From positions 295,435-359,434 of the forward strand of contig NMRA01000340.1 in NCBI GenBank assembly GCA_002633005.1: 64,000 bases of DNA, read 5' to 3'. How positions within the stretch are numbered: position 1 is the first letter of the stretch; each line of letters starts with the position of its first letter. Shown in pieces: positions 8,464-34,388 of this stretch. The DNA comes from Phoronis australis. Its lineage: Eukaryota; Animalia; Phoronida. The translations under genes were made by a program, and so were the position numbers. A model generated the notes under the pieces. It made no database searches, was not told the DNA's origin, and was given only the letters and a program-made list of their open reading frames with translations.

Positions 8464-8939
8464 GTGTTTGAATTACTGAGACTATAGATACCAACGCACG
8501 TGTTAGTGACGGTTTGTTGAAATTCAGTTGAAGTTAAAGAGAATTACTAGACAATTACAGTTGAGTTGTCGAAAGTGTCTCAGAAATTCATCACAAGTCA
8601 AGGCTCCGCTGCACTGTCCGGATCATAAAACAGACATTACGTTTGACGTTGTGATTGAGTACGCTTGTGAACGTTCGGTCGAGACTAATAAAGTGATTAA
8701 CTCGAACCAGTCTTCAGTCTAGCGTCTCGCCGAATGCTATAAGCACCGGTCGGTAACCACCTGCACCCAGCCACACACGGGGAACAGCATACACGCTGCG
8801 AAGTAATAATTATGATTGCAGAGATTAGACGTTTATAGTTATAGTAGGTAATAATGTGAATTTCGTGGAAGAAAAAGAATATGCGAATGATTTTAATCTT
8901 GGTTTTGACGAAAATCATAAAAAATGTTGGGGCGTCACC

Positions 8940-9020
8940 TGCTGCCAATCTTTTCACAAGTGACGGCTCATTGGTTGGACTGATTTGTGGGAAGGCTTAT
9001 ATAAATATGTCTATAAATAC
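8940..9020 (+). promoter_or_regulatory. Core promoter of peptide gene: CCAAT boxes and TATA boxes
   Basis: gccaat (~8944), attgg (~8970), tatataaa (8998-9005) and tataaata (9012-9019), 75-150 bp upstream of ATG 9094. Confidence 0.6.
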
Positions 9021-9093
9021 TGAAGACGTTTCGGTGTACTAACGGATCGTTCTTGAAGTCCAACACAAAAGTTACACTACCTAGACAGGCACC

Positions 9094-11401
9094 ATGAAAA
9101 CTTTGGTAAGTATGTCAAAAACCTGTTTCATTCACGGTCTTGAAACAATTATTCACCTAAACTAAGATTTTTTATGAAATACTGAAAATGATTTGAAAAA
9201 ATGGAAATTCCAGATAGTTCATTTTCTGATAATTGTGAACTTTCGTTCTTTTTCAAAAATGCAATATACATCAATGCAGCAAATCATATCTTCATTTTTC
9301 ACAGCTAACTTAATCGCATTTCTTTAAAGTGATACAATCGGCGTTATGAATAAAAAAAAAACGCTCAAAGTTGAACAGAATTTTACACAAATTTATCCCA
9401 AAGAACAGTTCAACAGTTAATCGTAGCTTTTTTATTAAAAATGTTTCGAACTTACCGCAAATGCGTTTTCCGTTTCTTGATTTTAGCAAAAGATGAAAAG
9501 CCAGCGATTCCCGATTTCCAGTGCCGCATTACTCGCAAGCCCAGTTTCAGCATTTTTAGAAAGCGAGTTTTGTATGCTGCTGGCTAGCAAGAGATTCAAT
9601 CAGTTCATTAGTCGGAAGGTGAAATTATTACAAGTTTTTCAGAAGCAATCTTAATATGTCTGCGTACGCTTAAAATTAGCCAAAAACGAGCGCGAATGTT
9701 TACCTGTATTTGGAATGCTAACCTACTTGGCTCTCAACCTGACCATACCTGACACGAGCAGGTTCGGCATGTCTGACAATTAATCTTAGTCCGGCGCTCG
9801 ATGTCGTTTCCAAATGCCTATTCTAGAACTGTCACTCATGATCATCCATCGTGCTTTATTCTCTGCCTTCACCTACAGTCAGTAGATTAGCCAAATTCGC
9901 ACGACCCACCACCTGCGTCGGCAATTTTCACAGCGTCGGTTAACCTTGACTGGAAGCCTTCGTTATGAAGCTGTGACTTCTACTAAAACCACAGACACAA
10001 TACATTTTGTTGTTGTAACTCTGTGTAAAGCTAACTATCTCTAAGAAGTCAATCTTACTCAAAATAATGCATTTCGACAGTAGAACCGAGTGTGTCCTCA
10101 TAAACGCTTTGCTTATGCCACTTACTATGAAACTGACCTAAACTACGCGGCGAATCTTGAGTGGATTAGTTATGACTTGATGGATTCTTTTTCAACGTTT
10201 GATGAAATCATGCAACGTGAGAATTTTCAGGAAGATCGAAATCAACTAATTTTTATGGTATACCCTGAGAACACAAAATATTTTCCACTGAATGTTTTCT
10301 TTACCGAGGTGCGCTAGCAAAAATACATGGCCATTTTCGATGGGAATGTGGTGAAGCCATTAAATTGGAAATAAGGGTTAAATTAGGTATGGCAACGCAA
10401 AGAAAGAAACACAAACATGAATCCATGCATAAAATAGACTGCTGAGAGCACTATCATACCTTTATTCCATTATTTCATTTGACGTTTGAAAAAGTTACCT
10501 AAGGTTATTTTGCCTATAGCGTACAATTAAAAAAGACACTGTGTCGAGAAAAAGTGGGAACTCTATTGGAAAATTGAATCAGTTTGGGGTCAATTTGTTA
10601 ACGGTGCTTTAGAACAAGATCAAAAGTATCTACATTCCTGCATGCAACATGGCCATTAATTTCGAAAATCACCGAGAGGGTGCACGAAATCAAACCTTGG
10701 CAGTCCTTAGCTCATCTATTCTATGCGCTTATATTGTAATAAACAGAGCTGGACTGGATGCCACTGTAGTTCCCAAAACGTCGGCGAGCTATCATGACCA
10801 CGGCTCTGCATGTTATAAAGTTTAATCCCACTGAGCAATAGGCATACACTCTTTCACGTCAAAAAGGCACTGGGACCTTACGTCAAGACCGTTGACTTCA
10901 CCAATTAAGTACGCTTGAAATACTCTGCCATTTAATAGAACTTTAGGCTGCGATTGCACGGGATGTCAGTACGATTCCGCCTTCGGTTGAAATCTGAAAA
11001 CCTGTTTTCTCGCCGATAATGTCACTTTAAACATCGTTTTCCAGATTGTTTTGTGTGTCTTGGTTCTTGTGTTCCTTGTGCAACACGAGGCTGCCGTGGT
11101 GACGAGCGAATTACAGCCTGAAACCGACAGCAATGAGCTAGAACAAGATCTTAGCGAACTGACTGCCCGCAGTGAAAACGAGGCCGACGATGATAATGAC
11201 GAGGATGACGAAGACGACGAAGAACCAAACAGTGAACTCATGAAACGTTACGAAGAAGTGGCAGAAAAGGAAGCGGAAGAAAGCCCTGACAAGCGCTTTT
11301 TCTTTTGGCGTAAACCTCGCCGTCATCATCACCACCATAGGCACCACCACCACCACTACCACCACCGTAATCGCCGCCGTTGTCGCTTCGGAAAGAAGTA
11401 A
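9094..11401 (+). CDS. Secreted His/Arg-rich peptide precursor, 122 aa, 2 coding exons (9094-9105, 11045-11401); candidate antimicrobial/metal-binding peptide
   Basis: accATGAAAACTTTG|gtaagt joins in phase 0 to ttccag|ATTGTTTTG giving MKTLIVLCVLVLVFLVQHEAA (signal-like), an acidic propiece (DDDNDEDDEDDEE), KR sites, then FFFWRKPRRHHHHHRHHHHHYHHRNRRRCRF-GKK-stop; AATAAA at 11704; same exon structure in the duplicate. Confidence 0.88.
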
Positions 11402-11907
11402 TTTAGCTGTAATCGGACGTTGAAACGCTTTCTGTAAGGATTCCTGTGCCTACAATGTGGATTTACAAAAATCTATAATTGGCCAAAATGTTTATGTACA
11501 AGTATTTTCAGTTTTCGAGAGCTGCACATCAGTGAAAAAGCATAGAATGACTTTGAAGACATGTAAAATACATTTCAAATCCTCGTTGAACTTTCTTTTT
11601 GCTGACTGTATTTTAAATCAAATGTTAGGGCGCTTGAAACTCCAAAGAAACAGCCGGATTTGACGTCCAGATTTTATGATAGCGTAATTAAACAATGCCT
11701 TTGAATAAATCAGTAGCTTGCAAAAACTGTTGTATCTTTGTCAGGTTCGACAATATTCCTCCTCCACAGACCGCAAAGTCGTTCTCGTAAATACATTTTT
11801 TCTGTTCTCACGAAGCACGTGCTAAATTATTTTCAAGCACACGCAACACACACCTCCGTCCCGTCAGACATGACACGAAATGTGGTTGATGAAAAATGAA
11901 TTTAGAA

Positions 11908-13265
11908 ACTAGAAAGATTTTTGTCACGGCGTGACAATAACGGACTCTGCGCGTGCGTATTACTGGAATTATTATGGGAAGTTACTGACAGCAACCCGTT
12001 CCAATATCAAAAGTAACTCTTTAAAATTGTAGGAGAAATTACATATTAATTTTTTGATGACCTTTCCACTAATTGACTTCTTCCGATGCATTATGAGCCC
12101 CGATGATCGAGTAATTGTTAACTCGATTAAAAGTGTGGTTAATGCTATTAATCACAGATGTTTTACTTTAAGCATTTCAGAATACAAAATGAATGAAGTG
12201 GTCAATTTTTCAGAAGAAAAATGCACCTAATAACCCCATGGGTGAACCAAATGACCTGAAAATTTAGAATTAAACTCAATCGCACTTAGTAAACAGATAC
12301 GTAATTCTGAAGTCTCTAGCTCAAAATTTTAGTTTGCACTCAATGACCTTTGACCTATTTTTTCTGATTGGTTTGGCCTATTGCGAAGTTGGCGTGTTGA
12401 CTTACACCAGTGTACTGAAATTGAAAAGAATTCCTTGAAAAACGTAAGAGATATAACATTTTGAACGTTACATGACCTTTGCACTAATTGACCTTATCCG
12501 GTGCATTTTAAGCATCTTTAGGATAATTATTGCAAAGCTCATGGAAAATGTGTTTAACGCTGAGAATCGCAGTTGTCTAACGGTTGACACATCAGAAAAC
12601 TTGCTGATTGAAAAGGTCAAATTTTCAGAAGAAAAATGCACCTAATGACCCCATGTTTGCACTAAATGACCTGAAACTTTGGATTCCGATTTGATTTACC
12701 TGTGGTAATCTGACCTGTCAATTTGAAGTGTCTAGCTCAAAATTTTAGTTTGCACCTAATGACCTTTGACCTATTTCACCTGATTGGATGACCCGATTAC
12801 TTAGAAAAGTGATTTTTTAAATTGTCATGTTTACTTATATGACCTTTGCACCAAACGACCTCTTCCGGTGCAATATGGAATATGATTATATAACCAATTA
12901 AAATATATATACTGTCGAAAGTCATATGCTGAATTCGAAGACCGTACCTGCGCCCAATTCGGAGTTATTAAGCCTCAAAGTTGGTCGGAAGAAGAATAAG
13001 AAGAATAAGAAGAAGAAAAAAATTGAAGAAAACCCAGGAACAACAGTACGCTGCGCTTACATGCCCAGAGTAATAAGAAGAATAAAATTGAAGAAAACCC
13101 AGGAACAACAGTACTCTGCGCTTACATGCCCAGAGTAATAAGAAGAATAAAATTGAAGAAAACCCAGGAACAACAGTACTCCGCGCTTACACGCGCAGAG
13201 TAATACAATTAAAATTGAAGAAAACCCAGGAACAACAGTACTCTGCACTTACACGCGCAGAGTAA
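11908..13265 (-). mobile_element. Non-autonomous Helitron/Helentron-type (HINE/DINE-like) element
   Basis: Absent from the paralogous site in unit 2 (~24995). Left end CTAG (11909-11912) next to a perfect hairpin ttgtcacg-g-cgtgacaa (11921-11937); subterminal inverted repeat actctgcgcgtg (11944) / cacgcgcagagt (13252); internal ~400-bp tgacc-rich tandem units. Confidence 0.75.
13015..13265 (+). repeat. Four tandem ~62-65-bp units at the end of the Helentron-type element
   Basis: aaattgaagaaaacccaggaacaacagtac(t/g)c...gc(g/a)cttaca(t/c)gc(c/g)cagagtaa repeated four times, preceded by an aagaag microsatellite. Confidence 0.9.
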
Positions 13266-14278
13266 GAATGCGTTGTAAATTAAAAAAGTCCGCTGTTGCC
13301 GTGCGAAACGTGTTAGTTTGTCGTCAGAAATGTTAACACAGAAAGCGTCCCAACGAAATCACCCTTTAAGTTCATGAGTGACTCCAAATTCCATAGACTT
13401 CAGGCTCAGTTAAAACCGAGGATTAAAATTTGGAAAAGGTCATTTCACGAACACCATGTCAGTTTCGGTCTCAGGTTCTGGTGTCGGGGGGGGGGGATAA
13501 GAGCGCCTTGGCAAGAAGCCCCTCGGGTCCAAACACAAGGTCGAAACCCATACCAATTTTGCGCTTGCTATGTGCCCCTGTGTCGACGTATCCCAACGTC
13601 GCCCACAATTTCGCATTTGCTCCTGAATACCTCTGGTAACGCCAGTAATCTCCGTTCCACAATACATAGACCATGGTTTCTTTCATCCACCGTCATGAAT
13701 ATGTAGGCCTAATTACGTTGAGTAAACAAACCACTTCACGTTCGTTTCCCCCTAAATATCTAGTTAGCAACTCATTGGATAAGCGCATTACCAAGCCCAG
13801 TTTCTGTCGTTTACTCGTCCTTATAAGCGAAATCTGTTGTATTACCGCGTCTCCATAGAGCGCAATGTCACACAATTTGCGTTGTTTCTCTGCCTAGTTC
13901 TCTCGTCGTCAGGCCAATGTGCATACACTTAGCATGCCCAACTCACAACTGTGGAAACACAAGCCATAATGCTTTGATTGTATCAGTGGTAACCTACTTT
14001 GGCAGACTATATTTTCACGGTCGAAGCTTAGCGTGATAAAATGTGTAGTATGCTATAATATTTGCTAAACGTTGATTTATAGATTCACTTTATTTCTAAT
14101 TTGTTTAGATTTTTTGAGTAAAAGCATTATTTGGCAAAAATATAAGTCGGCTTTTCTTAAAAGGTCACGACCTCCGACCCCAGGCCTCTCTCAGTCTGAC
14201 ATAGACAGTAGTTACAAAGCCGAGGCGAGTCGAGAAAGGTGGATCGATTCATTGCAATGTTTCTCGTACAGTATATGG

Positions 14279-14444
14279 TATAGATTATTACATGTTCTCA
14301 GTCATTATCTCCCTTATCTAGAGCCCTCGTGGATTTTGAAGAATTATCACCCTCTGCGCTAACTCCCCTCGGGCGATAATTCTCCAAAATCCACTCGGGC
14401 TCTAGAATACGGGGGATAACGACTTCGCCATGTAATAATCTATA
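14279..14444. repeat. Fold-back palindromic element (MITE-like) at the duplication junction
   Basis: tatagattattacatg...catgtaataatctata with inner arms tctagagccc..gtggatttt / aaaatccac..gggctctaga; lies immediately before the start of duplication unit 2. Confidence 0.8.
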
Positions 14445-16929
14445 TTTGTCTTTTTGCATATGTCAGGAGTGGACTGACGCTGTTCTAAGTATAATTGTTT
14501 CGTTCTATTGTCCTGTTTGTGTTCTAGCATATAGCATTTGATTAGCATGACCCCTAAGGTAAAAGCAGCAATGATGTAATTTGTTTACCAAAGAATATTG
14601 TGGAGCATTCTTGAAGATTCTAGCATGAAAGTGATTAATGGAATATGGAACATTCTAGACCCTAGTATATATTTGTAGAATGATTGGGTATATTCTGGAA
14701 AGTTCTACAATATGTTTGAATTAGTGAAAAGTTCTAGAACATTGCATGAGACTATAGATACCCAAGCACGGGTTAATGACGATTAGTTGAAAATCAGTTG
14801 AAATGGAAGAGAATTACAAGACAGTTACAGTTGAGTTGTTGGAAGTGTCTCAGATGTTCATTACAAGTCCAGGCTCCGCTGCACTGTCTGGAGCACAAAA
14901 CAGACATTACGTCGGATGTTGTGACTGAGTCGTACGAGACTAATAAAATAGTTTACTCTTGCCAGTCTTCAGTGGATCGTCGCATCGAAAGCTATAAGCA
15001 CTGGTCAGTAACCACCTGCGCCCAGCCATACACGGGGAACAGCATACACGCTGCGAAGTGATAATTATGATTGCAAAGATTAGACGTTTGTAGTTATAGT
15101 AGGTAATAATGTGAATTTCGTGGAAGAAGAAGAACATGCGAATGATTTTAATCTTGGTTTTGACGAAAATCATAAAAAATGTTGACAACAGAGTGTACTG
15201 ACTATTCTTGATAATTGGGGCGTTACCTGGTGCCAATCTTTTCACAAGTGACTGCTCATTGGTTGGACTGATTTGTGAATGGACGGGTTTATTTAAAGAC
15301 GTCTATAATTACTAAAGACGTTTCCTTGAAGTCCAACAGAAAAGTTAGACTACCTGGACAGACAGCATGAGAACTTTGGTAAGTAAGTCAAAAAACTGTT
15401 TCATTCACGGACTTGAACAATTATTTACCTCAACAAAGATTTTCTAAGAAATACCGGAAAAGACTTGTAAAAAATGTGTTTGCGTATTCAGGAAATTCAA
15501 GATAGTTTTTTGGTAATTGTCAAGTTTCGTTTTTTTTTTTCAAAAATGCAATATACATCAATGCAGCAAATGATATCTTCATTTTTCCCAGATAAATTAA
15601 TCACATTTCTTTAAAGTGATACAATCGGCTTTATGAATAAAAAAACGTTCAAAGTTGAGCAGAATTTTACACAAATTTACCCCAAAGAACACTGCAACAG
15701 TTAATCGTAACTTTTTTATTAAAAATGTTTCGAACTTACCGCAAATGCGTTTTCCATTGCTTGATTTTAGTAAAAAAATGAAAAGCCAGTGATTCCCAAT
15801 TTCCAGTGCCGCATTACTCGCAAGATCACTTTAAGCATTTTTAGAAAGCGAGTTTTGTATATTGCTGACTTGTGAGAGATTCAGTCGGTTCATTAGTCGG
15901 AAGGTGAAATTGTTACAAGTTTTTCAGAAGCAATCTTAATATGTTTGCGTATGCTTAGCCTAGAACGAGCGCGAATGTTAACCTGTATTTGGAATGCTAA
16001 CCTACTTACCTCTCTACCCGACTCGAGCAGGTTCGGCATGTCTGGCAATTAATCTCAGTCCCGTGCTCGATTCCGTTTCCAAATGTCTATTCTTGAACTG
16101 TCACTCATCCATCGTGCTTTATTTCTCTTCCTTCACCTACACTCAGTAGACTACCCACTGGATTTTTTAACGCCAAATTAGCACTACACACCACCCACGT
16201 CGGCAATTTTTCACTGGGTCTAGCAACGAAACAGCTGGTGAGGTCGCCGCCTCGAGTTCAGGTAACCTTGACTGGAAGCCTTTGTTAAGAAGCTGTGACT
16301 AATATTGAAACCACAGACACACAATATATTTTATCGTTTCAGAACTCTGTTCAAAGCTAGCTAACTCTACGAAGTCATTCTTCCTCAAAATAGGTCATAA
16401 TTGCATTTCGACAGTAGAACCGAGTGTGTTCTCATAAACGCTTTATAGTCCGGTCTCTCAGCAGCCAAAAACCCCAAAACATTTACAACCCGGATTAAAG
16501 CACCAAAGTTGGCACACAGATGCTTTGAGACACATTGAATCTCATGGGGTCGGTTGCCCGAAATTTGAGGTCAAGGTCAAGATCAAACCAAGGTCAAAGT
16601 TCATGTGGGTAATTTTTTTTGAAATGGCTAGACACGAAATATCTGCTTCATTACTGTTTCAGGTAATAAGCAGGAGGCTTTATTTTGATTTAAAATTAAT
16701 GTTGATAACTTGTACAAACACGTTAAAAGTAAAAAAGTAATTTCCTGACACAAGATGGTAATTATTATAATAAATAGAGCATATAGTATTACATCTTCAA
16801 TGAACAATAAGTNGAGGAAATATTTTACCGCTGTGTATAAATGCCGTAGGACTACCTATGAGCCAAATTTGGTGAAAATCGGCTGACCCCCACCTTGCCG
16901 CTTATGGCTGGTGCTCTCGTGGACTAGTA

Positions 16930-17690
16930 CTTAATCTCAGTCCAGTGCTCGATTCCGTTTCCAAATGTCTATTCTTGAACTGTCACTCATCCATCGTGCT
17001 TTATTTCTCTTCCTTCACCTACACTCAGTAGACTACCCACTGGATTTTTTTAACGCCAAATTAGCACTACACACCACCCACGTCGGCAATTTTTCACAGG
17101 GTCTAGCAACGAAACAGCTGGTGAGGTCGCCGCCTCGAGCTCAGGTAACCTTGACTGGAAGCCTTTGTTAAGAAGCTGTGACTAATATTGAAACCACAGA
17201 CACACAGTATATTTTATCGTTTTAGAACTCTGTTCAAAGCTAACTAACTCTACGAAGTCATTCTTACTCAAAATAGGTCATAAATGCATTTCGACAGTAG
17301 AACCGAGTGTGTTCTCATAAACGGTCTCTTAGCAGCCAAAAACCCCAAAACATTTACACCCCGGATTAAAGCACCAAAGTTGGCACACAGATGCTTTGAG
17401 ACACATTGAATCTCATGGGGTCGGTTGCCCGAAATTTGAGGTCAAGGTCAAGGTCAAACCAAGGTCAAAGTTCATGTGGGTAATTTTTTTTGAAATGGCT
17501 TGACACGAAATATCTGCTTCATTACTGTTTCAGGTAATAAGCAGGAGGCTTTATTTTGATTTAAAATTAATGTTGATAACTTGTACAAACACGTTAAAAG
17601 TAAAAAAGTAATTTCCTGACACAAGATGGTAATTATTATAATAAATAGAGCATATAGTATTACATTTTCAATGAACAATAAGTCTATTTG
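16930..17690 (+). repeat. Near-identical second copy of 16050-16812 after a single-N join (allelic contig overlap or local duplication)
   Basis: ttaatctcagtcc...tgaacaataagt repeated with few substitutions; second copy lacks ~12 bp covering the Academ left terminus; N at 16813. Confidence 0.85.
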
Positions 17691-18546
17691 TTTTCTCTGG
17701 ATGAGAAAAAACTGTCAAGCTAGTATGAATATGCATTAAGTCAACTCTAGAATGTTTTACCTTTAACAGAAATTCATTTTTAAATTCTTTGTTAAACTAT
17801 TTATGGTTAGTTATACAACAATTGGTCTCCGTATTTATACATGTAGGAAGAAATTTTCAAAGAACAATTGCTGAAACTTCTATCATCATTTTTAATTTGA
17901 TCACAGCTAAAAGTAACTTTGTTAATTAATGTGTTATATTTCAGTTTGAACTTGACTGTGACATTAATTAAAACAATTAAAGTAATTTAGGTAATTTAAG
18001 GTTTTCCAGGAGGATGAAATAAAAAAACCAGGTTTTACTTGTTGTATCAAAATAACGTGAAATCCTTGTTGCACTATACTTTAAAACAGGTCCAGGCATA
18101 ATTAATTGTATTGAGGAACATGTTTTTTCATAACAAATGTCTATGTTTAAGTTTTGCTTCCATCTAATTGTTTGTGTTGACATATTGTGGAACAACTGAA
18201 GATGACCCCTACTCATCCAGACAACAGTACTCATGCAGGTGACCTCAGCTCTGAGACTAAATTGATTTAACTGAATGGCACATTCTAACCGTCACAACTG
18301 CAGTAGAGTTGAGACTGTGTTTGATGCTTACACCGAAGACACCTTGAAGGCCACCACAAGAGCTGATAGAGGTTCAGGTGATCTTGCCGAAGTTTCACCC
18401 TAAACACGTCTGTCTCTGAACTTTCAGAATTTCTTGCAAAACTTGAAGAATAAAGAGGAATTGTTCATGCTGTAAGGTTAAGATATCTTGGCAATCGCCT
18501 TATCCTCCAGTGCATGATATATATGTTACCGCTGTCAGTCTGTTCT

Positions 18547-18892
18547 CATAAGCGGATTTAAGGGGGCCCAGCCCCCCCTTGGCTGCCGGAAAAAATAAAA
18601 CAGAAAAAGCCCGAGTGAATTTTGAGTTTAGTAATTAACGTCGGTAACTAACATGCGGCTGAGGGGGGCTCAGACCCCATTGAAAGTGTCCGATTTAGAC
18701 CACCGGTGTACGATCATTTGTTCTTTTATTTTTTTTTCAGTCTTCCGATTGCGTTTTAGTCCAAGGTCCACATCCACAGAAATTCGGGCAGCTCTAGATG
18801 TCAGGCTGTGTGCTCCCATGCGCTCGTGCTTTGCGCGATTGCCCGGGACACATTGTTGGGCACCCCCTTATGATATCCTAGATACGTCACTG
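18547..18892. mobile_element. Small non-autonomous DNA element nested in Academ coding region
   Basis: CATAAGCGGATTTAAGGGGG...CCTAGATACGTCACTG imperfect inverted termini, flanked by 5-bp direct repeat gttct; interrupts the XPG-like reading frame. Confidence 0.6.
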
Positions 18893-20447
18893 GTTCTTTC
18901 CTCTGGTTCTGATATACCATCGTGCGATCATGAGGAGTCGGACATCCGTATGGGCTTGTACATTGCGGACGCTTTGATCAAAGGTAATCAGAGAATACTA
19001 GTTAATACAATGGAAACTGATGTTGTGGTCGTTCTTCTTGGTGATTTTCATCAGCTTTAAAGGCTTTGCAGCCTGCAATTCAATGACGGACAGTGGTTAA
19101 AGCTGGAAAGAACGCACGGGTCCAACTCTTCGTCACTAGCGTGTTTGACCAGCTTGGGTACGATTTGTTTGTAGCTCTACCAATGTTCCATGCCTTAAAA
19201 GGGTCGGACACAATGTCCCAGTTCTATGGAGAAGGGAAGAAAACAGCATGAAAGACATGGAAAGCTTACCCTGATGCTACTCGGGAATCCTCGTACCCCG
19301 CAATCAATTCCTTTCAGCAACTCAGCATCGACAGTCAGGAGTTTAAAACAAATGAGACATTTATATGTGTCGTTTATGATCGAAAAGCCAAAACCAGCCA
19401 AGTCAATACTTTACGAAAGAAACTTTTCCCCAGAAAAGTTCAGATCATGCCAAATTTATAGCTTACCCAGTCTCCTCTGATAAAACATGTTAACAAATGC
19501 TTGTATCAAGCTGGCAGTCGGATGCCCATCCATGAGAAACCAAGTCCAGAGGAGTTTGGATGGCAGAGAGACACGACCAACAATGGATACTGTGGTTGCA
19601 AGAGCGTACCGCTATTCGTCAAGAGATGTGGATGAAAAATTGCTTCCTTAGCATGCACAACACTTTCCAAATGCCAGGGAACATGAGCTAACATGGTTTG
19701 TTATGGACCAAAGGAACGGATGAAAGTGTTAATTTAATTCTGTGGGCTACACTGACAATTTGACATTAATCCGTTTTATTGTGTCGATAATATAAGCAGT
19801 TGACAATCGGTTTATATGTAGACAGGAGCTATAACAAGCATACTAACGACATTTATCAAAGCTGGCCCCTGAGTTTTTGGTAGTCTGTCACGTTCTATGC
19901 ATTATATTAGTCCCTTTATCATAACATAAAGCAAATTTTTATAATAATTGTACAAATTAATGATAAATCGAGTTCAGTTTGGTAAGAGAACCTATTTATT
20001 TTTGTATTATTAGTCTTGCACCAGATCAAAATAGATGCTTTTGTTAAAAGTGCAGTTGGTTAGTTAAATTTTGGCGGCCATGTTGGTTTTATGCAAATGA
20101 GGAGTTTTAATATTAGGAGGAAAATATATTGCAATGTCTTTTGTTAGATTTCTAGTTAAGAAAGTACCATTACCGAGCCTTAAAATGTGTGATCATCTCT
20201 TAAGCAATCATAGATTGTATTACCCCAATATTTTTAAAAAATATTCTGAAATTCCGCAAGTGTACTACAAAATTAATTTTTTCTATATGGAAGTCAAGAA
20301 TTCAACCCAAATGAAGATAAGGTTTTATTCGAAATAGTATCAAAATTTCTTTTTATTTTTAAATCTCTTTCAGTGAGTGGATAGAATTGTATAAATGTGT
20401 ATGAAAATGATTTATTTATTTTCGTAATCATGTCGCATTGCAATCTT

Positions 20448-22738
20448 TCTTTTTTCACTGTGATATATATTTATTGAAGGATACACAGAACATACAAAGA
20501 AATAATAACAAACCCAGAAACCGCGAACCATAATATCTGGGTTGTAAACAATTCATAAATGAAACTTATATACATAGAGGTATATACAATTAAGTAGTAT
20601 CTAAAATAAGTATTCCAATACTTAGACATGCTATTACAGATACATAAAAACAAAAATATGTACAGATTCATGTAGGGAAATCAGATGCAACAATATTGAT
20701 AAACGGTACATAAAAATTTACTAACGTTGCTTAGGAGGAATTCGTTGAGAACAAAGTCAAGGTTAGGACTACCATTCAGTAATAATGTAACTCTAGTAAG
20801 GATATTATTACAAGAATTGAGAGCGTTAACAATTGATTGGTTATCATTGAGTGCACAAAAGAGTGAGTCTCTCAGGGATTCGATGAGGGGACATTTGAAG
20901 AAAATATGAGGATAAGATTGACGGTCACCAAATTTACAGTTTGGAGAGACATTACTAAAGTTGTGCCTGAACTTGTTAGAGTTGAGGAAAAGGCCACATC
21001 TTGATCTGTACAATGCTATTTCGTTATCGCGGGTAAGGGAGATTTGAGTCAAGGGTGTTGAGTTATCAAAATTATGAAAAACAGTTCTAAAATTATTTTT
21101 TATACTCGTAAAAGAGTTGCTTTCCTTAACAGAGACTGGAAGAGAATTCCAGTTGTTGATGCACATCATGACTGTAGACCTTCTGAATGCCTGACTGAAC
21201 GACGGAGGAATTGCANNNNNNNNNNNNNNNNNNNNNNNNNNNNNNNNNNNNNNNNNNNNNNNNNNNNNNNNNNNNNNNNNNNNNNNNNNNNNNNNNNNNN
21301 NNNNNNNNNNNNNNNNNNNNNNNNNNNNNNNNNNNNNNNNNNNNNNNNNNNNNNNNNNNNNNNNNNNNNNNNNNNNNNNNNNNNNNNNNNNNNNNNNNNN
21401 NNNNNNNNNNNNNNNNNNNNNNNNNNNNNNNNNNNNNNNNNNNNNNNNNNNNNNNNNNNNNNNNNNNNNNNNNNNNNNNNNNNNNNNNNNNNNNNNNNNN
21501 NNNNNNNNNNNNNNNNNNNNNNNNNNNNNNNNNNNNNNNNNNNNNNNNNNNNNNNNNNNNNNNNNNNNNNNNNNNNNNNNNNNNNNNNNNNNNNNNNNNN
21601 NNNNNNNNNNNNNNNNNNNNNNNNNNNNNNNNNNNNNNNNNNNNNNNNNNNNNNNNNNNNNNNNNNNNNNNNNNNNNNNNNNNNNNNNNNNNNNNNNNNN
21701 NNNNNNNNNNNNNNNNNNNNNNNNNNNNNNNNNNNNNNNNNNNNNNNNNNNNNNNNNNNNNNNNNNNNNNNNNNNNNNNNNNNNNNNNNNNNNNNNNNNN
21801 NNNNNNNNNNNNNNNNNNNNNNNNNTTGGCAATCATTTTGATCATCTTGCTGGTTATTAAAGCTGTGCCATCATTCTTATTGGGGTCAATTTCATTGAGA
21901 TACTTCCGGACATCAGTTTGATTAGCCGGGATGTCAGACAGTTGATTGAGACAACGTTCACGAAGAAAGGGAAAGTTACTTACTTCAGTTGGTGTAATGT
22001 GGCTTTTGTTCGTGAAAAATTTGAGAAACAAATCACACTTGTCACTACTACGTGAGGCTAGGTTACCATTATAGTTGATGACAGGATAGGAGGATTGCTG
22101 TTGACTGCCGCGTATTTTATTGATGATGTTCCAGTATTCTTTGGAATTCTTGCTTGCGCTGTTAATTTGTTGAAAAAGCTTGTGTCGGTGATCAGCTTTG
22201 GCTTGATTTACTAAAGTTTCAACCAGACGTGACTGCTCCTTGTATCTGTTGTAGATTATAGTGTTGTTAGATCTTCTGAAAGAGCTGTAAAGTCTGTTTC
22301 TTGTGCGGATTGCCCGTTTAACATTACTGTTGAACCACGGTTTGCTGTTGTGTTTAATTATCTTTTCAGTTGATGGGATGTTGTTTTTTAAGATTTCATA
22401 GAGAGTACTAGTGAAGAGTGAAACAGTGTCATCAATGTCGCCAGTGTTCAATATGGAATCCCAGTCAGTGTTGGTGATATCCTGGCGCAGTTTATCGGTG
22501 TCGACCTGATTATATTTCCAGTTGGTTCGAGTGGTGTGTTGTTCATTAACCGGTTTTTTAAGTGTTCGAGTGGTTTCGATAGTGTGGTGATCAGAATTGC
22601 CAACAGGAGGTAGTACAGAACATGAGTCAATGATACTCAAATTGTTTGTTATACAGAGGTCAATACATGAATGAGAAACGTCGGTGATACGGGTTGGCTC
22701 ATTAATTAGTTGTATGCAGTCATTAGACAATAAAATAT
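20448..22738 (-). mobile_element. 5'-truncated LINE (CR1/L2-like ORF2) nested in Academ
   Basis: Long open ORF2 segment (QLINEPTRIT..SCIDL..NSDH endonuclease C-terminus; KPWFN linker) 21826-22730 and C-terminal part 20681-21215; AATAAA plus short A tail at the left end; 12-bp TSD cattgcaatctt at 20436-20447 and 22739-22750; RT core falls in the N gap. Confidence 0.9.
21216..21825. other. Assembly gap (N run)
   Basis: About 610 Ns. Confidence 0.99.
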
Positions 22739-25700
22739 CATTGCAATCTTAACAACAGTTTTTTAATTTATGTATTTGTGTAAAATAATTGTATGTAGAT
22801 TTCGTTGTACTTTTTTAACTCAGATATAATGCCTCTTGGCGCATTCTGGGTTATGTACATGTATATTCATTGTATCGAAGATTTCGTAATAAACATTATA
22901 AAAAATAGATTGTATTACTTGGCAACCACTTTGTTTTTCGAGAATTGACCTTGACCTCAAAATTTAGGCAACCGACTCCATGAGTACCAGTGTGCCAAAT
23001 TTGGGGCTTTAATCCGAGGTGTAAACGTTTTCGGGTTAAGGGCTTGGACCATTACTTATGCCACAAAATGCAACTGACCTCAACTACGCGGAGAATGTTT
23101 AGTGGATTATTTATGACTTGATGGATTCTTTTTCAACGTTTGATGAAATCATGCAATATGAGAATTTTCAGGAAGATCGAAATCAGCTAATTTTTATGAA
23201 ATTAGTCAAGCACTGTATCCCCTGAGAACACAGAATATTTTTCACGGAATGTTTTCTTTGCCGAGGTGCGCGAGCAAAAATACCCGTTTTCAATGGAAAT
23301 GCTATGCAGCCAAGAAATTGGAAATAAGGGTTAAATTAGGATATGACAACGCAAAGAAAGAAACACAAACATGAATCCATGCATAAAATAGACTGCTGTG
23401 AGCATTAGCATACCTTTACTTCATTTTATGTGTTAAACTTAACGTTTAAAAATGTTAGCTAAGGTTATGAATGGGCAATGTCGGCATTCCCGTGCTGCCA
23501 TTATGGCGTTTTGTCCATGCCCATCTTGCAGAGTCTTAGTTAGTTTCATCTATTTACGTCATAATAAATGACAATATTCGCAATCCTCCTCTTGTTTTAC
23601 TCTGCAACATAGCTCGTGGGGTACCCCGCGCAAAATAGATTACGATAAAAACAGTGTCGAGAAAATGTGGGAACTCTATTGGAAAATGGAATCCGTTTGT
23701 GGTCAATTTGTTAACGCTGCTTTAGAGTAAGATCAAAAGTACTTACATTCCTGCATGCGACATAGCCATTAATTTCGAAAATCACCGAGAGAGAGCACGA
23801 AATCATACCAAACAGTCCTTAGTTCATCTATTCTATGCACTTATGTTGTGATAAACAGAGCTGGACTGGATGCCACTGTTCTTCCCAAGACGTCGGTGAG
23901 CTGTCCTTACCACGGCTCTGTGAGGTTTTGTCCCACTCAACAATACGCCTACCCTCGTTCACGTAAAAAAGGGCAGTGGGACCTTAAGTCTTGACCGTTG
24001 ACTTCAATCTCCAGTTAAGTAGGCTTAAAATACTCTGCCATTTAACAGAACTTTAGGTTGCGATAGCAGAAGATGTTAGTGCGATTTGGCTGAACTCTGA
24101 AAATCTGTTTTCTCGTCGATAATGTCACTTTAAACATCTTTTCCAGATTTTTTGTGCGTCGTTTTTCTTGTGTTCCTTGTTCAACATGAGGCTGCCGTGA
24201 TGACCAACGAGCTACAGCCTGAAACCGACAGCAGTGAGCTAGAACAAGATCTTAGCGAACTGACTGCCCGCAGTGAAAACGAGGCCAACGATGATAATGA
24301 CGAGGATGACGAAGACGACGAAAAGCCAAACATTGAACTCATGAAACGTTACGAAGATGTGGCAGAAAAGGAAGCGAAAGAAAACCCTGATAAGCGCTTT
24401 TGGTTTTGGCACCGTAGACGTCGTATAATCCACCAGAGTTAACACCACCATCGTCGCCTTTCTCACTACGGAAAAAAGTAATTTAGGTGTAATCTGACGT
24501 TAAGACGCTGGCTGTAAGGATCCCTGTGATCTGCTGCCTACCATGCTGGTTTACAAAAACCTATAAATAGTCCAGACTTGTTATGTATTTGCAGTTATGT
24601 AGAGTTGCAAATCAGTGAAAAAGCAATGACTCTGAAGACATGTCAAAACATCAATTCCTTGTTGAACTTTTTTTTCTGACTGTAATTAAAGTCAAGTCTT
24701 AGGGCGTTTGAAACTCCAAAAAAACAGCTGGATTTGACTTCCAGATTTTATGATAGCGTAATTACACAATGCCTTTGAATAAACCAGTAGCTTGCAAAAC
24801 TGTTGTTTCTATTGTCAGGTGAGACAATATTCCTCCTTCACAGACCGCAAATACAGTTAAGTAGTCTTTTTTCGTGAATACACTTCTGTTCTCACGAAGC
24901 ACGTGCTACAGTATTTTCCAGCACACGCAACTTACACCTCTGTCCCGTCAGATATGACACGAAATGTGGTTGATGCAAAATGAATTGCAATTTAGAAAAA
25001 ATGCTTTATAAAATAAAAAGTCCACAGTTACCCTGCGAAACGTGTTTGTTTGTCGTCAGAAATGTTTTAACATTTAAGTGTTAAAACACAGAAAGCGTCA
25101 CAACAAAAACACCCTTTCATGAGTGACTCCACGTTCTATAAACTCCAGGCTCAGTTAAGACCGAAGAAGAAAATTTGGCCATTTCACGAACACCATGTCA
25201 GTGTCGGTCTCAGGCTTTGGCGTAAGCTCAAGCGGGGGTTGGACACAATGGCGCCCTGGCAAGAAGCCCCCTCTGGTCGAAATCCCAGGTCGAAACCCAT
25301 ACCAATTTTGCGCTTGGTAAATGCCCCCGAGTCGACTTATCCCAACGTCGCGAACAATTTCGCGTTTGCTCCGGAATTCCTCTGGTTACGCCACTAATCA
25401 CCGTTCCACAATACACCGCCGGTTTCATTCACCATCTTGAATACGTACTTGCGTTGAGAAAACAAACCCCTTCACGTACGTTTCCTCCTGTGCATGTATA
25501 TCTAGTTACCTACTCATGGGATAAACGCATTATCAAGCGCAGTTTCTGTCACTTTCTCGTCCTTAAAGCGAAATCTGCTGTATTATTGCCTCTCCATAGA
25601 GGGCAATTTGGCTTGTTTACTCTGCTTAGTTCTCACAGTGCCCTCGCTGGTTCCTTGCGTGCCGCTAGGTACCTACTGTACGCAGGGAACCAGAGAGTGT

Positions 25701-26743
25701 CAGTATCACACCAATGTGCATGCGCTTCGCATGCGCAACTCACAACTGTGGAAACATTATCCATAATGTTTTGATTCTGTCAAAATCATTATCAATATCA
25801 TATAACGCATCCTCTCATTGGCTTATTGCACAAAGTATGACATAAAAACTGGTTAATTAATGTAGGGCCCAATTGTATGAAACAGTCAGAAATGGGGTCT
25901 CAACAACGGCGATTCGGGAAGCCGGCAGTGGGCACTACCGCTGCCTAGCTCTGGTAGGTGTAACGTAAAGTTATTGAAATTTTGTTAAAATATACCGACA
26001 TGATCAAGCACCAAGTGACCACCTGATGCAATACAAAGCTCATGTACCTGGGACAAATGAAGAAATATAACGCATGACGTATGTTGAAACATGGGTAGCG
26101 ATTTGGCCGAGGCATGGCCAGAGGGTAAATTCACACGACCACACATTTTGGCATTTTCATCGTGTTTCTTTGCCTGGCGCTAGATTTCTTTCACCCGTAG
26201 GAATATACGTCATGAAACGTTCGTCGTATAAGTATCTAGGGGGAAGGAAAACAGCAGAGCAGAATCGGTCGATAATCTTTAATTTCTCAAGTTTCGAATT
26301 AGCATATCAAGATAAAAACAAGGTAAACACACTTTTAATACTCATCGAACTGTTTTGACAACTAAGGAACTGGAATTACAACGAATTTAGTTGTAAACAA
26401 GTCAACGCTCACACAAGCCATCTTGACTCAGTCAAAAGGCGGAGAGTGGGCAGACAATATTGATGATATTGCAGAAAAACGTCGTTTGCATCTATAATTC
26501 CTGGTTATCTCTTCCTACTATCATGAAGTTAGCACTATATTTTACAATCGCAGCCTAAAGCAGTGCTCATGCAGGGACGTATTCATGGTCAACACCTTTA
26601 TTTGGACTTTCTTTCTTTTAAAGGTGCATTTCTCTTTGTTAAGATAAAAAACTATAATCAAATTAGACTTTTGACACCCACGAAATTAGTCTCATAGTAT
26701 TACTTACCGTGATTAGATTCTCCTTCTGTTAACTACACGACGA

Positions 26744-26936
26744 TGTTGTGAAGCTGTGGAGTTGTCTCCCTCAAAAACTGAAGACAACATCAAGTGGGAA
26801 GCTTCCACGCGACTCGGCGTTCAAAAGAGAGCGTCTGCTCCCTTGACTTTGTGGTATTCAGACTGACAAGTCGTCAGTTTGCACTGTCGTAACCTTTGGC
26901 GAGTATTTGGCGTGCCCTTAACTTGAATATACTACA
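26744..26936 (+). repeat. 5' LTR
   Basis: tgttgtgaagctgtgg...gaatatactaca, followed by PBS-like sequence. Confidence 0.93.
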
Positions 26937-26959
26937 TTTTGGTGGGAACGATGGGATCT

Positions 26960-29900
26960 CCATGGTCACTGAACAATGCCTCAGAGATGTCGGTGCGTAT
27001 CGACGCCTCTCGTGACAACACGCTTGATGCACTGTTCTCACTCAGCCTTTCCATAACGTTCTCACTTTTCTGTTTTACTTGTCCGATCACCATTTCCAGT
27101 TCTCCGATGGCGGCCATTTTGTCCGCCAAAACTGACGCGTACGTGACCAGATTGTCCTTTTGTAGAGCCAGCAGTCTGTTCTTCTGCACTTCGCTGTTCG
27201 CCTGTTCGTTAACAAGCACAAACTGTAACTCTTCAATCTGACACTGGGCGTCCTCAAACTCCCTCACGTTCCTCTACATCGCCTGCTTCTGTCGGGTCAG
27301 GTACGCCAGCTGGCCTAGACACACAGCCTCCAGCGACAGCATCTCGGCATAGTTCTTCAACTTTGCCTGAACATCAGGCACATACTTCTCCGGAGACAAG
27401 TGCAACAATTTCAGGCAATCGTTCACTTGTATCAGTTCTTTTCGATGCCCTTCATGGCATCCGTTTTCTCGTCCATCCGCATACTACAGTCGAGTGACCT
27501 AATTATCGGACGTTTTGACACATTTTGCATTATATTTAATTGAAAATACTACGGATTGTTGTAAATTCTTTGCTGAAATAAAGATTTACCTTCACGTAAT
27601 TGTTCTGTTACTATATCTTGTCACTGAAAGCCACATTTATGTTCCGACTGATCTTCAAAAAACACAACAACCAAACCTTCGGAGAACCTAAATATCGGAC
27701 ACCATGTTTCTCCATACGCCACACCGCGGAAAACTGACTAACCATGTAATGGCCGCGGGCACCTTGTCACCAAATTTCAGCTCGAGTGTTTTGACATATA
27801 TGCTGCTAGAACCCAGGTCCATTCGCAACAAAATTATCCATAAAATGAAATCTGATGACGGCGCCAAGTCGTTTCGATGAATTAGTGCAGACGACTAAAG
27901 CACGTGCAAACTCACTGCAGTTTTTAGTATCACTTAGGCTTCTTGATATGACACCCGCACGTGCGCGGTCGGGGTTTGACTCGAGTTTAAAAACAAACGA
28001 AAAAATGGAACAGTGACATATTGTCAGTTCAATGAGATGGTGCCATTGTGGAAAANGTCAGTTCAATGAGATGGTGTCATTGTGGAAAAAGATTTTATTT
28101 TCAACTTTTATAACCGATTTATGCGATCGTCCATTTTAGGCCGACTTGGGGGTCTAAATTGCACCCTCTCTCGGTGAAATCAAAACGAGGCAACGCTGTA
28201 AAAAACAAGACGGTGCCGGACATTTAATGCATTACAACGGAACAAAAATTGGTGTCATTTAATTCTCAGATTATGCTTCAAGTAAGATTCTATGAAATGT
28301 CCGATATTTAGGTTCCGTCCGATAATTAGGTACACTATGTGTACTCACACCACTCCGTATACTGGCCATCACCGTGCGACACTGTGCTATCAATGCCTGC
28401 GAGCGATGTGGCGACTCCTTACCATGCCCACCATAATATGTTGGACTGTCTGACATCAAGCTGCTGATGTCTTCGTTCAGCGTAGTCAATTTGCCTTCTA
28501 TCAAATCTGACTGCTGCCTGAGGGCATTATAGGCTAACTCTATCTCCCTATACTCCAACTGCAACTTCTGCAGTCTCGCCTGTAACAGTTTGACTGCCTG
28601 GAAACACTTGTCATATTTACCCTTCAGAGCCCTATACTCCTCTGAAACTGACTCAAAACTAGCCACAGACATGTCCTGTGTACACTAAGTCTAAGATCGT
28701 GAAGTCACTGCTAACATCCTCATGCCCGTTACCCAGTTGATAGTCATGCAACAGAACCACCATTTCATCAGTCAATCTTGTACATTCTCCGTCACTCGTT
28801 TCCAATTGTTCTCTTTGCTGGAGAACGTTCTTCTTTAAACGCACATTCTCCCTCCTTAAGTCTGCCATTTCTAAACTAGTAATATGAGTTTGCATAACAC
28901 TGACTCGCTGTTGTAGCCCACTGTCAGCGTTTTTCCCATGATGCACACTCTCCAACTCAGCAGTAAGATCACTTGTTTCTTTCAATGAGTCAGACAGCTT
29001 GCCTTCAAGCTCTGCGATCGTCTCATTCTTCTCACGTAGGATATCTGCCATGTCAACATCTAGGAGTCCACAATATTCGATTGCTTTTGGTAGCGTTCAA
29101 TACGCTGCTCTAATGAACGTATTTTTTCATTCAACTGCTTTCTTTCCATTTCAAAACCACTTTGAACTTCTTTAATTTTCATTTTATGATGCCATTCACT
29201 GCAACGTAACTTTTCCATATTCTCTTTTAACAATTTCTCAATACTTTGCAATTTACTACACTTCTCCTAAAACTTAGAATTAAAACTTCGTAACTATGCC
29301 ACCTCTTTAGTTAAATTTCTTACAGTCTTCGTCTTTTCCTCCAAATCTTTGCGTGATTTCTCCACCGACTCAGCCCTTTCCTTGCACAACCTATCAGCTC
29401 TCTCGAGCTTATTTTTCATCCTCGTAATATCCTCATCTTTTATGATAATCTGTCTCTTGGCTTGTTTCAAGTCACCAGTCAACTTCTTCACATTTTCCCG
29501 TTCACCGTTCCAGTTCTTGGTCGTCTGTTCCATTGCTAACAGTTGCAGCTTACCCTGTAGTGCACCAATCTCCGTCTGCTGTCTGTTAATGATGCCATTT
29601 GAGTCTCTTACCTGTCGCTTTAGTGTCTGCACCTGCGCAATGTATCGTGTCGAATCGGTAGCAAAATCATCCAGAGATTCACGATGACTGAGCCGTCCCG
29701 CTTTCAGCTGAGTCTTCAGTCAGACATTATCGTCCTGGAGATGGCTCACTTGTTTATGATCCTTCTCCAGCTGAGCTTTCACCGTCTCCACTGGCTCCAC
29801 ACAATAGGCAGGCTCAGCTTCCGACAAGTCAACCACCACTGTCGCTTGGTACCTGTAAGTGTTTTCTGCACTCCTGACGGACGCCTCCAGAGGAGGTGAC

Positions 29901-31757
29901 TTGGGTCGTGGTGAGCCTGATCGTGACCTTGCCAGTAGTCTCTCGGTGGGTGACATCATAGCAGGCGACTTGTGGTGGCGAGATGCGCTGTGCTTTCGCT
30001 GGTACAGTCGAGAGCTTGACTCAATAGGAGGCACCACCTCTTTGTCAATGATGTCATCAACTTCTTTCGTATTGACTGACGAGTCTCTATACGCCTCACC
30101 TAACTCAACCTGGTCCAGGTGCCGCGGTTTGTACGACGCCGGCTGGGCGGTTCCACTGGAGCGGCGATGCAGCTCTCGGATACACTTCTCCACCTCCTTA
30201 ATGGCCTGCTTCTCTTCAGATGACATTGTCGATGGGATGTCAGCTCTCTCGTCATGAGTGGTGGGACGTGGCGACGCCTGCTTGTGCTGTTGCGACAGGG
30301 ATAATTGCTGAGAAGGGTAAGCGGCGCTTGGTGCAGGATGACTGACGGTCAAGTCGGACGAATCAGTTGAGGACGACCTCCGTCGGCTCACTGACCTGGC
30401 CTCGGTCATATCATCTTCGATGTGCTTCACCTGGTCTGTACTGCGGGCGGGGTAACGACCGCCCAACACCCGGGTGTCCGTTTTCAACGTGGGTGGAGTC
30501 CTAACCCGTTTCGACACATCCTGCTTCAAACGGTCTTCATCATCGACGTGTCGCGTGGTGACGCGATCCTCGTCGGAACGACTAGAAAAATCCTTACGAT
30601 ACTCAGCACTGACGGCAGCAGTGCCATCGTTGGAGTGGTGACTAGATGACTTGGCCATCTGTATACAGTTTTCAATGGCTTGGATCCAGTTCTTACGTAT
30701 ACCTTGTGTCATGTCTGAAAATATGAAGGTGCCGCTTCCAGTCTGAATTTCAAAGCCCTTAATGCGCAACACGTCAACAGGTGTCACCTTCTCTCCAGTA
30801 GACTAGTCAATCCTGCCATCGAGCATATCGTTCTCCTCAGCCATGGCGTCCTTGTAGTACCTAAGGCCAGAGCCACTCAGCACGAACCAGTGCTTGCAAC
30901 AATCCCTTTCTGACTCTCCTCGTTTCACAAGCCAGCCCTTCTTCACAATGTTGCCATCCTTTTTGCCATCTGTATCATTGATAAGTTTCAGAGCGCCAAG
31001 ACACTCCTTGTTGGAAAATCTATTCCGTGGTGATGTGTCATCGAGATTTTGTGGGGTTACAGCAACAGAGAAGCCATAGTTTCTAAAAGGACTCGGTGAT
31101 TTGGACTCACGGAAACTGCCATGTGGCCGATTGCGGAGTCAACTTACTGTTTGCCCTCGACGCTCCCTGGAAGTCTTCGCCGTCGTTCTGGGTCCTCTTC
31201 GGAACTGACATCATTCTCAATATGCTTCACCTTCGGGACGCTAGCAAACTCATTAATTGTAAGGCAGAACTTTATATGGTACGGGTTTCACGGGCGCTGG
31301 CCTGTCGGGGGTGGTGAGCGATCCGAACAAGTTCTTGGACTGCTTTCTTCCCATGTATAGACTATCATTGTTATCATATTCGTAGTTAGCAACATCTAAG
31401 TCGTTTCGGGATCGTTTGTGTTCGCTCAGTTTACCGCCATCTAGACCATTGTTTTGATCCTGCATGCTACTATTCCTACGCACACCATCTCGCCCCAGCA
31501 ATACGCCTGAGGCTTGTGCGAGCCAGGGTACTTAATCTCGTCGGGAGGTGGTAGCCGTGCTGGAGCCTCACTTTCAGAACCCGACTCTTCCTGGCTTTCT
31601 CCCTCCTCGGATTCGTTGTCCTCGTCGCAGAGCCTCTGGTTCACGTACGTCTCACTATGGCTGCGAGACAGTCCCAATAGCTGTAGGTCTCTCTTGAGTT
31701 TGTTTGCGCGCTCTTCCTCGTAACGTACAATTTCTATGGGCTGGACCAGCGTTGAAG
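26960..31757 (-). pseudogene. MPRIP: Intronless decayed copy of an MPRIP/TRIOBP/outspread-family gene (PH domain + long coiled coil), antisense inside the LTR element
   Basis: Minus strand ~30960-30660 reads KKGWLVKRGESERDCCKHWFVLSGSGLRYYKDAMAEENDMLDGRID*STGEKVTPVDVLRIKGFEIQTGSGTFIFSDMTQGIRKNWIQAI, recognisable as the family's PH domain, followed by Ser/Arg-rich and coiled-coil ORF fragments down to the PBS; multiple stops and frameshifts; no evident introns. Confidence 0.85.
27484..28341. mobile_element. Non-autonomous Tc1/mariner-like element inserted in the captured gene
   Basis: Inverted repeats acctaattatcggacg / cgtccgataattaggt near both ends, TA at both flanks; AT-rich interior interrupts the coiled-coil frame. 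Confidence 0.7.
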
Positions 31758-34378: not shown

Positions 34379-34388
34379 TGTACTAAAG

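Follow-up and report, generated by a model that had tools for sequence, protein, structure and literature searches.

A gene for a short peptide rich in histidine and arginine (copy 1) and a broken tandem duplicate of that gene (copy 2) lie head to tail in the window, that is, the whole 64,000-nucleotide stretch of Phoronis australis contig NMRA01000340.1 analysed here (animal DNA of approximately 40% G+C, with four gaps). Copy 1 is undamaged and its transcript is spliced, while copy 2 is a frameshifted tandem duplicate that is still transcribed. By analogy with known peptide systems, copy 1 probably encodes a host-defence antimicrobial peptide of arminin-like design that would act in a metal- and pH-dependent manner; the secretion, processing, metal binding and target of this peptide are predicted from its sequence.

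The duplicated unit measures approximately 6 kb, and its two occurrences align in five blastn blocks at 77-86% identity, far beyond chance (E=0). A first-pass annotation had placed tandem paralogues at 15367-24481. The tandem duplication is borne out by blastn, but that span covers copy 2 only, and copy 1 lies outside it, at 9094-9105 and 11045-11401.

8190-13985, plus strand: duplication unit 1, with the intact copy 1 (blastn)
14438-25782, plus strand: duplication unit 2, with the broken copy 2, head to tail to unit 1 (blastn)

Copy 1 is an intact and expressed gene

Eight runs were listed, of which four were used. X1 consists of DNA contigs, possibly from the window's own sample, and such contig assemblies drop rare variants. 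X5, X6 and X7 are raw stranded RNA reads from one different study, picked by species label, with approximately 18-19% of each run read. The first mate lies on the minus strand in 25/25 reads that span GT..AG joints, which fixes the direction of the library.

In X7, 15 spliced reads join position 9104/5 to 11044/5 of copy 1 across a GT..AG intron, and sense depth runs through the 3' untranslated region (UTR) up to the bin that holds the AATAAA. The level, by a rough estimate, is approximately 15 reads per kilobase per million (RPKM), and copy 1 is expressed in this way in one of the three RNA runs. The encoded precursor has 122 residues and comprises a hydrophobic leader, an acidic propiece, a KR site, a His/Arg-rich 31-mer and a terminal GKK; the signal peptide and its cleavage site were judged by eye. 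The 31-mer contains 12 His, 10 Lys/Arg, 6 aromatic residues and a single Cys, with no Asp or Glu.

8998-9017, plus strand: two TATA-like boxes of copy 1, putative function (sequence)
9094-9105, plus strand: coding part of exon 1, start codon, four codons (RNA junction reads)
11045-11107, plus strand: start of exon 2, remainder of the predicted signal peptide (sequence, by eye)
11108-11296, plus strand: acidic propiece of 63 residues, 29 of them Asp/Glu, with two KR sites and KR at its end (sequence)
11297-11389, plus strand: predicted mature peptide of 31 residues, FFFWRKPRRHHHHHRHHHHHYHHRNRRRCRF (sequence)
11390-11401, plus strand: GKK and stop, predicted amidation signal (sequence; mechanism as described for myticalins in part of PMC12294457)
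11704-11709, plus strand: AATAAA, in whose bin the X7 sense RNA depth stops (RNA depth)

An 8-nt stretch at 11446 is missing from copy 1 of the window and present in the 3' UTR of copy 2, in X5-X7 reads and in one X1 contig; therefore, the copy-1 allele of the window carries a derived deletion.

The propiece appears constrained and the mature region fast-evolving

The near-identity of the two propieces, claimed in the first-pass annotation, holds at 56 of 63 residues and 178 of 189 bases (11 differences). The proportion of non-synonymous differences (pN) in the propiece is 0.045 (7/155) and that of synonymous differences (pS) is 0.12, while non-coding DNA shows 195 differences between the units over 1831 ungapped sites (0.107). 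Relative to this non-coding divergence, propiece pN is reduced (P=0.012) but propiece pS is not, a pattern better explained by purifying selection than by wholesale conversion. The signal part shows no special conservation, with 9 of 57 bases different. For the mature region, 1825 codon alignments with one or two gaps were enumerated, and the eight best, with the fewest differences, were used. Across these eight, only 9-11 of 23 aligned codons are identical, and copy 2 is shorter by seven codons, so the strong divergence reported at first stands. Mature pN is 0.29-0.36 in the eight best alignments, higher than propiece pN (P<=1e-5) and than the non-coding divergence (P<=2.4e-4), with a pS of 0.20-0.36 on approximately 12 sites. 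The comparison proposed earlier, of dN/dS between propiece and mature region, thus supports a constrained propiece and a mature region that, on these alignments, is clearly fast-evolving. Positive selection on the mature region is suggested, but a pN of 0.29-0.36 against a pS of 0.20-0.36 leaves dN/dS >1 unproven. Part of the change in copy 2 may reflect decay of its mature region after the gene was broken.

A second allele of copy 1 shows the same contrast within a single gene. Among 40 of the 160 rows of the allele table (5 of the 15 X7 variant places lie outside those rows), the X7 allele has six listed coding differences from the window. The prepro part carries one synonymous and one non-synonymous difference, and the mature part carries F90I, K94R, R96H and F119Y, so that all four listed there are non-synonymous and none is synonymous. 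Non-synonymous changes thus amount to 1 in 203 prepro sites versus 4 in 77 mature sites (P=0.021). F119Y also changes the acceptor of a putative antisense intron described below; therefore, this substitution is not necessarily a sign of selection on the peptide.

The contrast between propiece and mature region could instead be mostly mutational, produced by slippage in the His/Arg codons together with gene conversion of the propiece, and this reading, which is compatible with any function of the peptide, is credible though unlikely. It draws on runs of 52 and 35 identical nucleotides between the two propieces, on the propiece differences at 24333, 24377 and 24391, where X1, X5 and X6 carry the copy-1 letter, on a mature pS that is raised as much as pN, and on a repeat flag over 11335-11373 within the mature codons of copy 1. 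However, the propiece pS of 0.12 equals the non-coding value of 0.107, which argues against wholesale conversion, and the four mature changes in X7, each a point substitution, fall outside the His runs and are all non-synonymous.

Copy 2 is broken but still transcribed

Copy 2 lies at the coordinates first assigned to it (exon 1 at 15367-15378, exon 2 from 24147 and end at 24481) and retains its start codon and both splice sites. Both of its TATA-like boxes differ from those of copy 1, as had been noted.

15290-15309, plus strand: altered TATA-like boxes of copy 2 (sequence)
15367-15378, plus strand: predicted exon 1 of copy 2, start codon and GT donor intact (sequence)
23469-23650, no strand: short high-copy interspersed element in the copy-2 intron, absent from copy 1 (blastn gap)
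23670-24013, plus strand: new upstream exon of copy 2, spliced to 24147, with an approximate 5' end set at the onset of sense depth (RNA reads)
24147-24481, plus strand: exon 2 of copy 2, ending ...KR FWFWHRRRRIIHQSXHHHRRLSHY GKK, with X at the stop (sequence)
24148-24153, plus strand: frameshift lesion just past the acceptor, a T-run one base short of the matching copy-1 stretch (contig and raw reads)
24440-24442, plus strand: premature stop after 14 mature codons (X1 contig)

The frameshift is real and not an assembly error. At the read level, where a check of the T-run had been proposed, the base is missing from both the X1 contig and the raw reads of X5 and X6. The X1 contig 23850-24264 spans the place with no other letters and no gaps. 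When reads are placed on copy 1, the base is missing from 3 of 11 X5 reads and from 2 of 6 X6 reads, the remainder including reads of copy 1 itself, and no insertion row occurs at the frameshift among the reads placed on copy 2. An allele free of the frameshift may exist elsewhere, since contigs lose rare variants.

The premature stop has a different standing. The X1 contig 24412-24556 holds it with no other letters, but with 28 letters on its left side, fewer than the 31 that the bridging rule asks for. The X1 contig before the stop breaks off at 24441, where a 30-letter overlap marks a branch of the assembly graph, and contig depth is 26 before 24441 versus 18.5 beyond it, which fits two haplotypes merged and then one, in a G+C-rich stretch of uneven depth. 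In X5 and X6, RNA depth on both strands is zero from the bin after the stop region onward. Because of the contig end at a graph branch, the fall in contig depth and the drop of RNA depth to zero, a second allele probably departs from the window sequence at approximately 24441, and the stop is probably not fixed. The earlier check of the TAA at 24440 is thus answered by its presence in the X1 contig, but the second allele probably leaves the window sequence at this very place. The statement that a TAA stands where copy 1 has TAC is right as to the stop, but the match with TAC depends on the alignment and is not that of MAFFT or of the eight best codon alignments. The idea that an ancestral second peptide could be recovered by repairing this one stop is not supported, given two independent lesions, an ancestral codon that depends on the alignment, and changes some of which may post-date the loss.

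Broken as it is, copy 2 is still transcribed, from a new upstream exon. Propiece sense reads in X5 and X6 carry the copy-2 letter at one diagnostic site (11/11 and 14/14), versus 0/37 in X7. The joint between 24013 and the old acceptor is spanned by six reads in X5 and four in X6 and removes a 133-nt GT..AG intron. In the propiece frame, the new exon contains a stop at 23992 that no AUG follows; the first in-frame AUG consequently comes only after the leader, and translation from an AUG is not predicted to give a secreted product. Sense transcription begins just behind the interspersed element at 23469-23650, which may supply the promoter for the new exon. The summed contig depth of this element reaches 93,650, versus 25-90 in its flanks, and many of the RNA reads on it stem from its other copies. 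The gene death proposed earlier is too simple a picture: copy 2 is a tandem duplicate with inactivating lesions, but one that is transcribed from a new exon and whose stop is probably unfixed.

Antisense RNA over both copies

Unspliced antisense depth covers both copies in X5 and X6. In the 3' UTR of copy 1, antisense versus sense depth is 3.4/0.1 in X5, 8.0/0.8 in X6 and 0/13.8 in X7. Three X6 reads join the mature-peptide codons of copy 1 to the copy-2 intron, and the stretch that they skip is bounded by GT..AG on the minus strand. The consensus donor at 16009 is present in the copy-2 intron only and has no counterpart in copy 1.

11386-16009, minus strand: putative antisense intron, with its donor at 16009 in the copy-2 intron and its acceptor at 11386 in the mature codons of copy 1 (three X6 reads)

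A bolder reading of the locus would combine a family of poly-His metallo-antimicrobial peptides in at least two animals with a broken duplicate that has become an antisense switch of the intact gene. Antisense RNA from the copy-2 donor would splice into the mature codons of copy 1 and would be present where copy-1 mRNA is nearly absent. The chance that this combined reading is correct appears slim. The antisense picture comes from three joint reads and three runs of one study, and read-through from a neighbouring minus-strand gene or differences between tissues account for the pattern equally well.

Family size and possible relatives

The locus had been expected to belong to a larger, rapidly evolving family, and this expectation is not supported by the window and the searches made, although diverged paralogues may lie elsewhere in the genome. 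Searches by blastn found two copies and no third in the 64-kb window, and contig depth over a stretch identical in both copies is 51.6, approximately the single-locus level, so that there is no sign of many near-identical propieces. Two His/Arg-rich frames at 38542-38601 and 38746-38808 have neither a signal nor a propiece and fall on a repeat of CCA/CCG codons; they are attributed to chance and were rejected as paralogues.

Protein searches with copy 1 likewise yielded no further family member. A word-index search returned 47 candidates, none at E<=10, and HMMER over 1.84 billion representative proteins gave one match, P0122 (E 9e-6). Among the 1706 candidates of a three-sequence profile search, only P0122 was found, which is itself a member of the profile. 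Four composition-level matches in Pfam are all far below the cut-off, five weak matches in PDB reflect His/acid composition (E 0.03-0.46), and the Atlas search gave no usable match and is uninformative. The one locus from a metagenome scan (L001) matches through a stretch of acidic residues within an unrelated protease-like frame of 855 residues and was rejected. A literature search by title and start of abstract, over papers available without subscription, found no poly-His precursor of this kind.

P0122 is a 111-residue protein on a 396-nt contig, labelled Salmonella sp. in NCBI and UniRef. It shares with copy 1 a signal, a 63-residue acidic propiece, KR, an aromatic cap (WWW), a poly-His peptide and a G-R-R end, whereas identity is 35-38% and its peptide is a 22-mer with 13 His and almost no Arg/Lys. 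Composition-keeping shuffles reach the observed score 21 times per 5000 for the whole protein, 702 times for the propiece and 43 times for the mature part. P0122 has the same design as copy 1, with homology unproven given its selection from a huge library. Its bacterial label is doubtful, and it is probably a mislabelled animal sequence with a precursor of eukaryotic type.

Comparison with known peptide systems

The arminins of Hydra and their placozoan look-alikes consist of a signal, a strongly acidic N-terminal region, a basic C-terminal peptide and a terminal Gly, and copy 1 shares the signal, the acidic N-terminal part, the basic C-terminal part and the Gly for amidation, as far as part of PMC12013895 describes them. 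Arminin paralogues are clustered, like the tandem copies 1 and 2, but sections of PMC10945409 present arminins as restricted to Hydra and very highly expressed, with expression in epithelium of gut type, in contrast to the approximately 15 RPKM of copy 1. The copy 1 peptide further differs from arminins in its poly-His stretches, its lack of an amphipathic helix and its KR cut. No arminin match was found with copy 1 in the Pfam, PDB and protein-library searches, a scope outside which a direct pairwise comparison with arminins falls.

The precursors of frog skin dermaseptins, phylloseptins and medusins, described in part of PMC6920962, comprise a signal, an acidic spacer, one or two KR sites, a short mature peptide and a Gly. 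They share with copy 1 the order of parts, the KR-ending spacer and the Gly amide donor, and frog skin paralogues have a conserved prepro region, as copies 1 and 2 do. However, the frog spacer has 23-29 residues versus 63 in copy 1, and the frog mature peptides are amphipathic and belong to a vertebrate family (PMC6920962). For the dermaseptin superfamily, copy 1 has no Pfam match and a helix moment not above that of shuffles, and a neighbouring gene in the window is nearest to invertebrate proteins. Since there is no sequence match, the likeness to frog skin precursors is presumably convergent.

The acidic extension of clavanin precursors is C-terminal, whereas that of copy 1 is N-terminal. 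Clavanins have 23 residues, are helical in membranes and contain few His, in contrast to the 12 His in runs and 10 Arg/Lys of the copy 1 peptide. Those of Styela clava are His-rich, with activity that rises at pH 5.5 and with Zn and depends on Zn/Cu (in part of PMC8424629), and both they and the copy 1 peptide are His-rich, cationic and of marine-invertebrate type. The myticalins of Mytilus occur in tandem copies with pseudogenic alleles and have a Gly before a dibasic site for amidation (PMC12294457, in part). Like the copy 1 peptide, they are linear, compositionally biased and cationic, with the Gly-dibasic motif and a tandem arrangement with a pseudogene, but their order of signal, mature peptide and acidic tail is the reverse of that in copy 1, and the family includes >200 precursors (PMC12294457). 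By layout, copy 1 is arminin-like or frog-skin-like, while its sequence would make it a member of neither group. A conserved prepro region, a variable peptide and a tandem pseudogene together form a well-known design that specialists would find familiar, and with two copies the locus fits an ordinary pattern of gene birth and death. Any surprise would have to come from the transcription of the duplicate or from the antisense splice.

Predicted function of the copy 1 peptide

As a host-defence antimicrobial, the probable reading given above, the copy 1 precursor would be secreted, and the propiece with its 29 acidic residues would offset the charge of the cationic peptide on its way through the secretory pathway. 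A prohormone convertase would cleave at KR, and a carboxypeptidase together with PAM would convert GKK to an amide. The aromatic N-terminal cap and the ten Arg/Lys may bind microbial envelopes, while the twelve His would raise the charge at low pH and coordinate Zn or Cu, in the manner of clavanins (PMC8424629, in part). In favour of this interpretation are the layout shared with arminin and frog skin precursors, the spliced sense mRNA, the constrained propiece beside a fast mature region both between copies and in the X7 allele, the tandem copies known from myticalins and arminins, the pH and Zn response of clavanins, and the independent protein P0122 with its similar plan. Several observations weigh against it. 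X5 and X6 contain no spliced reads of copy 1, and copy-1 expression is modest, while arminins rank among the most abundant transcripts (PMC10945409, in part). The amphipathic-helix moment of the 31-mer is not above that of shuffles (0.63 vs 0.62). The window holds two copies only, and the Pfam, PDB, Atlas and protein searches found no sequence link to any named family. In addition, mature pS is raised, and part of the excess divergence could come from slippage in the His/Arg codons or from the decay of copy 2.

A neuropeptide or peptide hormone precursor is an improbable alternative. The C-terminus of copy 1, R-x-R-F-amide (R-x-R-Y-amide in the X7 allele), is presumably like that of NPY/NPF-type peptides. 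However, receptor ligands evolve slowly, whereas the mature part is the fastest here, both between copies and between alleles, and the C-terminal motif of copy 2 differs and is not R-x-R-F/Y. NPY/NPF precursors carry the peptide straight after the signal and have a conserved PP-fold, while the copy 1 peptide comes last in its precursor and has no Pfam match. The modest, sample-restricted expression of copy 1 would suit a neuropeptide, as would its signal, dibasic site and Gly-Lys-Lys, which are standard for neuropeptide precursors (PMC6586643, in part). The two roles can also coincide, some Hydra neuropeptides being antimicrobial as well (sections of PMC10945409).

A secreted metal-binding peptide for mucus, adhesive, tube, jaw or metal handling, with His-Zn/Cu cross-links, is more doubtful still. 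With 12 His among 31 residues in copy 1 and 13 among 22 in P0122, which has almost no Arg/Lys, His and not charge is the common trait. However, His-rich proteins with structural roles tend to be long and repetitive and to occur in abundance, whereas copy 1 encodes one short peptide that carries an amidation signal and is modestly expressed, and fast non-synonymous change fits conflict better. A venom or deterrent-mucus peptide against predators or prey is very unlikely: a conserved prepro region with a variable mature part is also typical of venom peptides, a pattern that copies 1 and 2 share, but the peptide has one Cys, no disulfide scaffold and no amphipathic helix, Pfam and PDB gave no match to a toxin family, and the gene has low expression and two copies only.

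Architecture of the locus and neighbouring genes

The intron of copy 2 is expanded by a 6.6-kb insertion, which contains a 0.77-kb duplication beside a single N, a LINE-like endonuclease/RT (reverse transcriptase) fragment and a 610-N gap.

16445-23051, no strand: 6.6-kb insertion in the copy-2 intron, with imperfect inverted ends (sequence comparison)
21830-22748, minus strand: LINE-like endonuclease/RT fragment in the copy-2 intron, broken by the 610-N gap (sequence searches)

The direct duplication (16049-16812 and 16931-17683, 96.6% identity) lies beside the single N at 16813 and may stem from two haplotypes that the assembly placed one behind the other. The 3' part of a LINE-like element occurs in two copies with 90% identity, at 20460-21214 in the copy-2 intron and at 34388-35137. 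A tandem array with a 65-nt period and 4.1 copies (13002-13265) lies between the two gene copies and is absent from unit 2. Farther out, an interspersed element of 1.5-2 kb occurs in two inverted copies (76-80%) at 3954-6014 and 52496-53961, the former with a minus-strand frame at 5369-5809 that we take to be THAP-like.

Exons of a protein with a PH domain and a coiled coil occupy 26935-31785 on the minus strand (PH domain E 8e-5, just under the Pfam cut-off), presumably resembling the MPRIP/TRIOBP type. This gene points at the peptide locus and could be the source of antisense read-through. An ammonium transporter gene with at least three exons lies on the plus strand at 48160-55330 (Pfam E 3.5e-53 and 2e-32). 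Its product has 53-67% identity to proteins of molluscs, cnidarians, deuterostomes and others, and this neighbour is nearest to invertebrate proteins. In a quick tree of 56 rows from 120 matches, it forms a long, unplaced branch with no close annotated relative.

Implications

Copy 1 provides an expressed and synthesisable 31-residue candidate in which 22 of 31 residues are His, Arg or Lys, and its predicted metal- and pH-dependent killing is testable. A natural variant with four changed residues, from X7, is available for comparison, and the peptide comes from an animal lineage without a close annotated relative. The locus as a whole represents a duplicate caught in the course of decay, with a frameshift shared between samples, a stop that is probably unfixed, a newly gained first exon, and an intact neighbour covered by antisense RNA.

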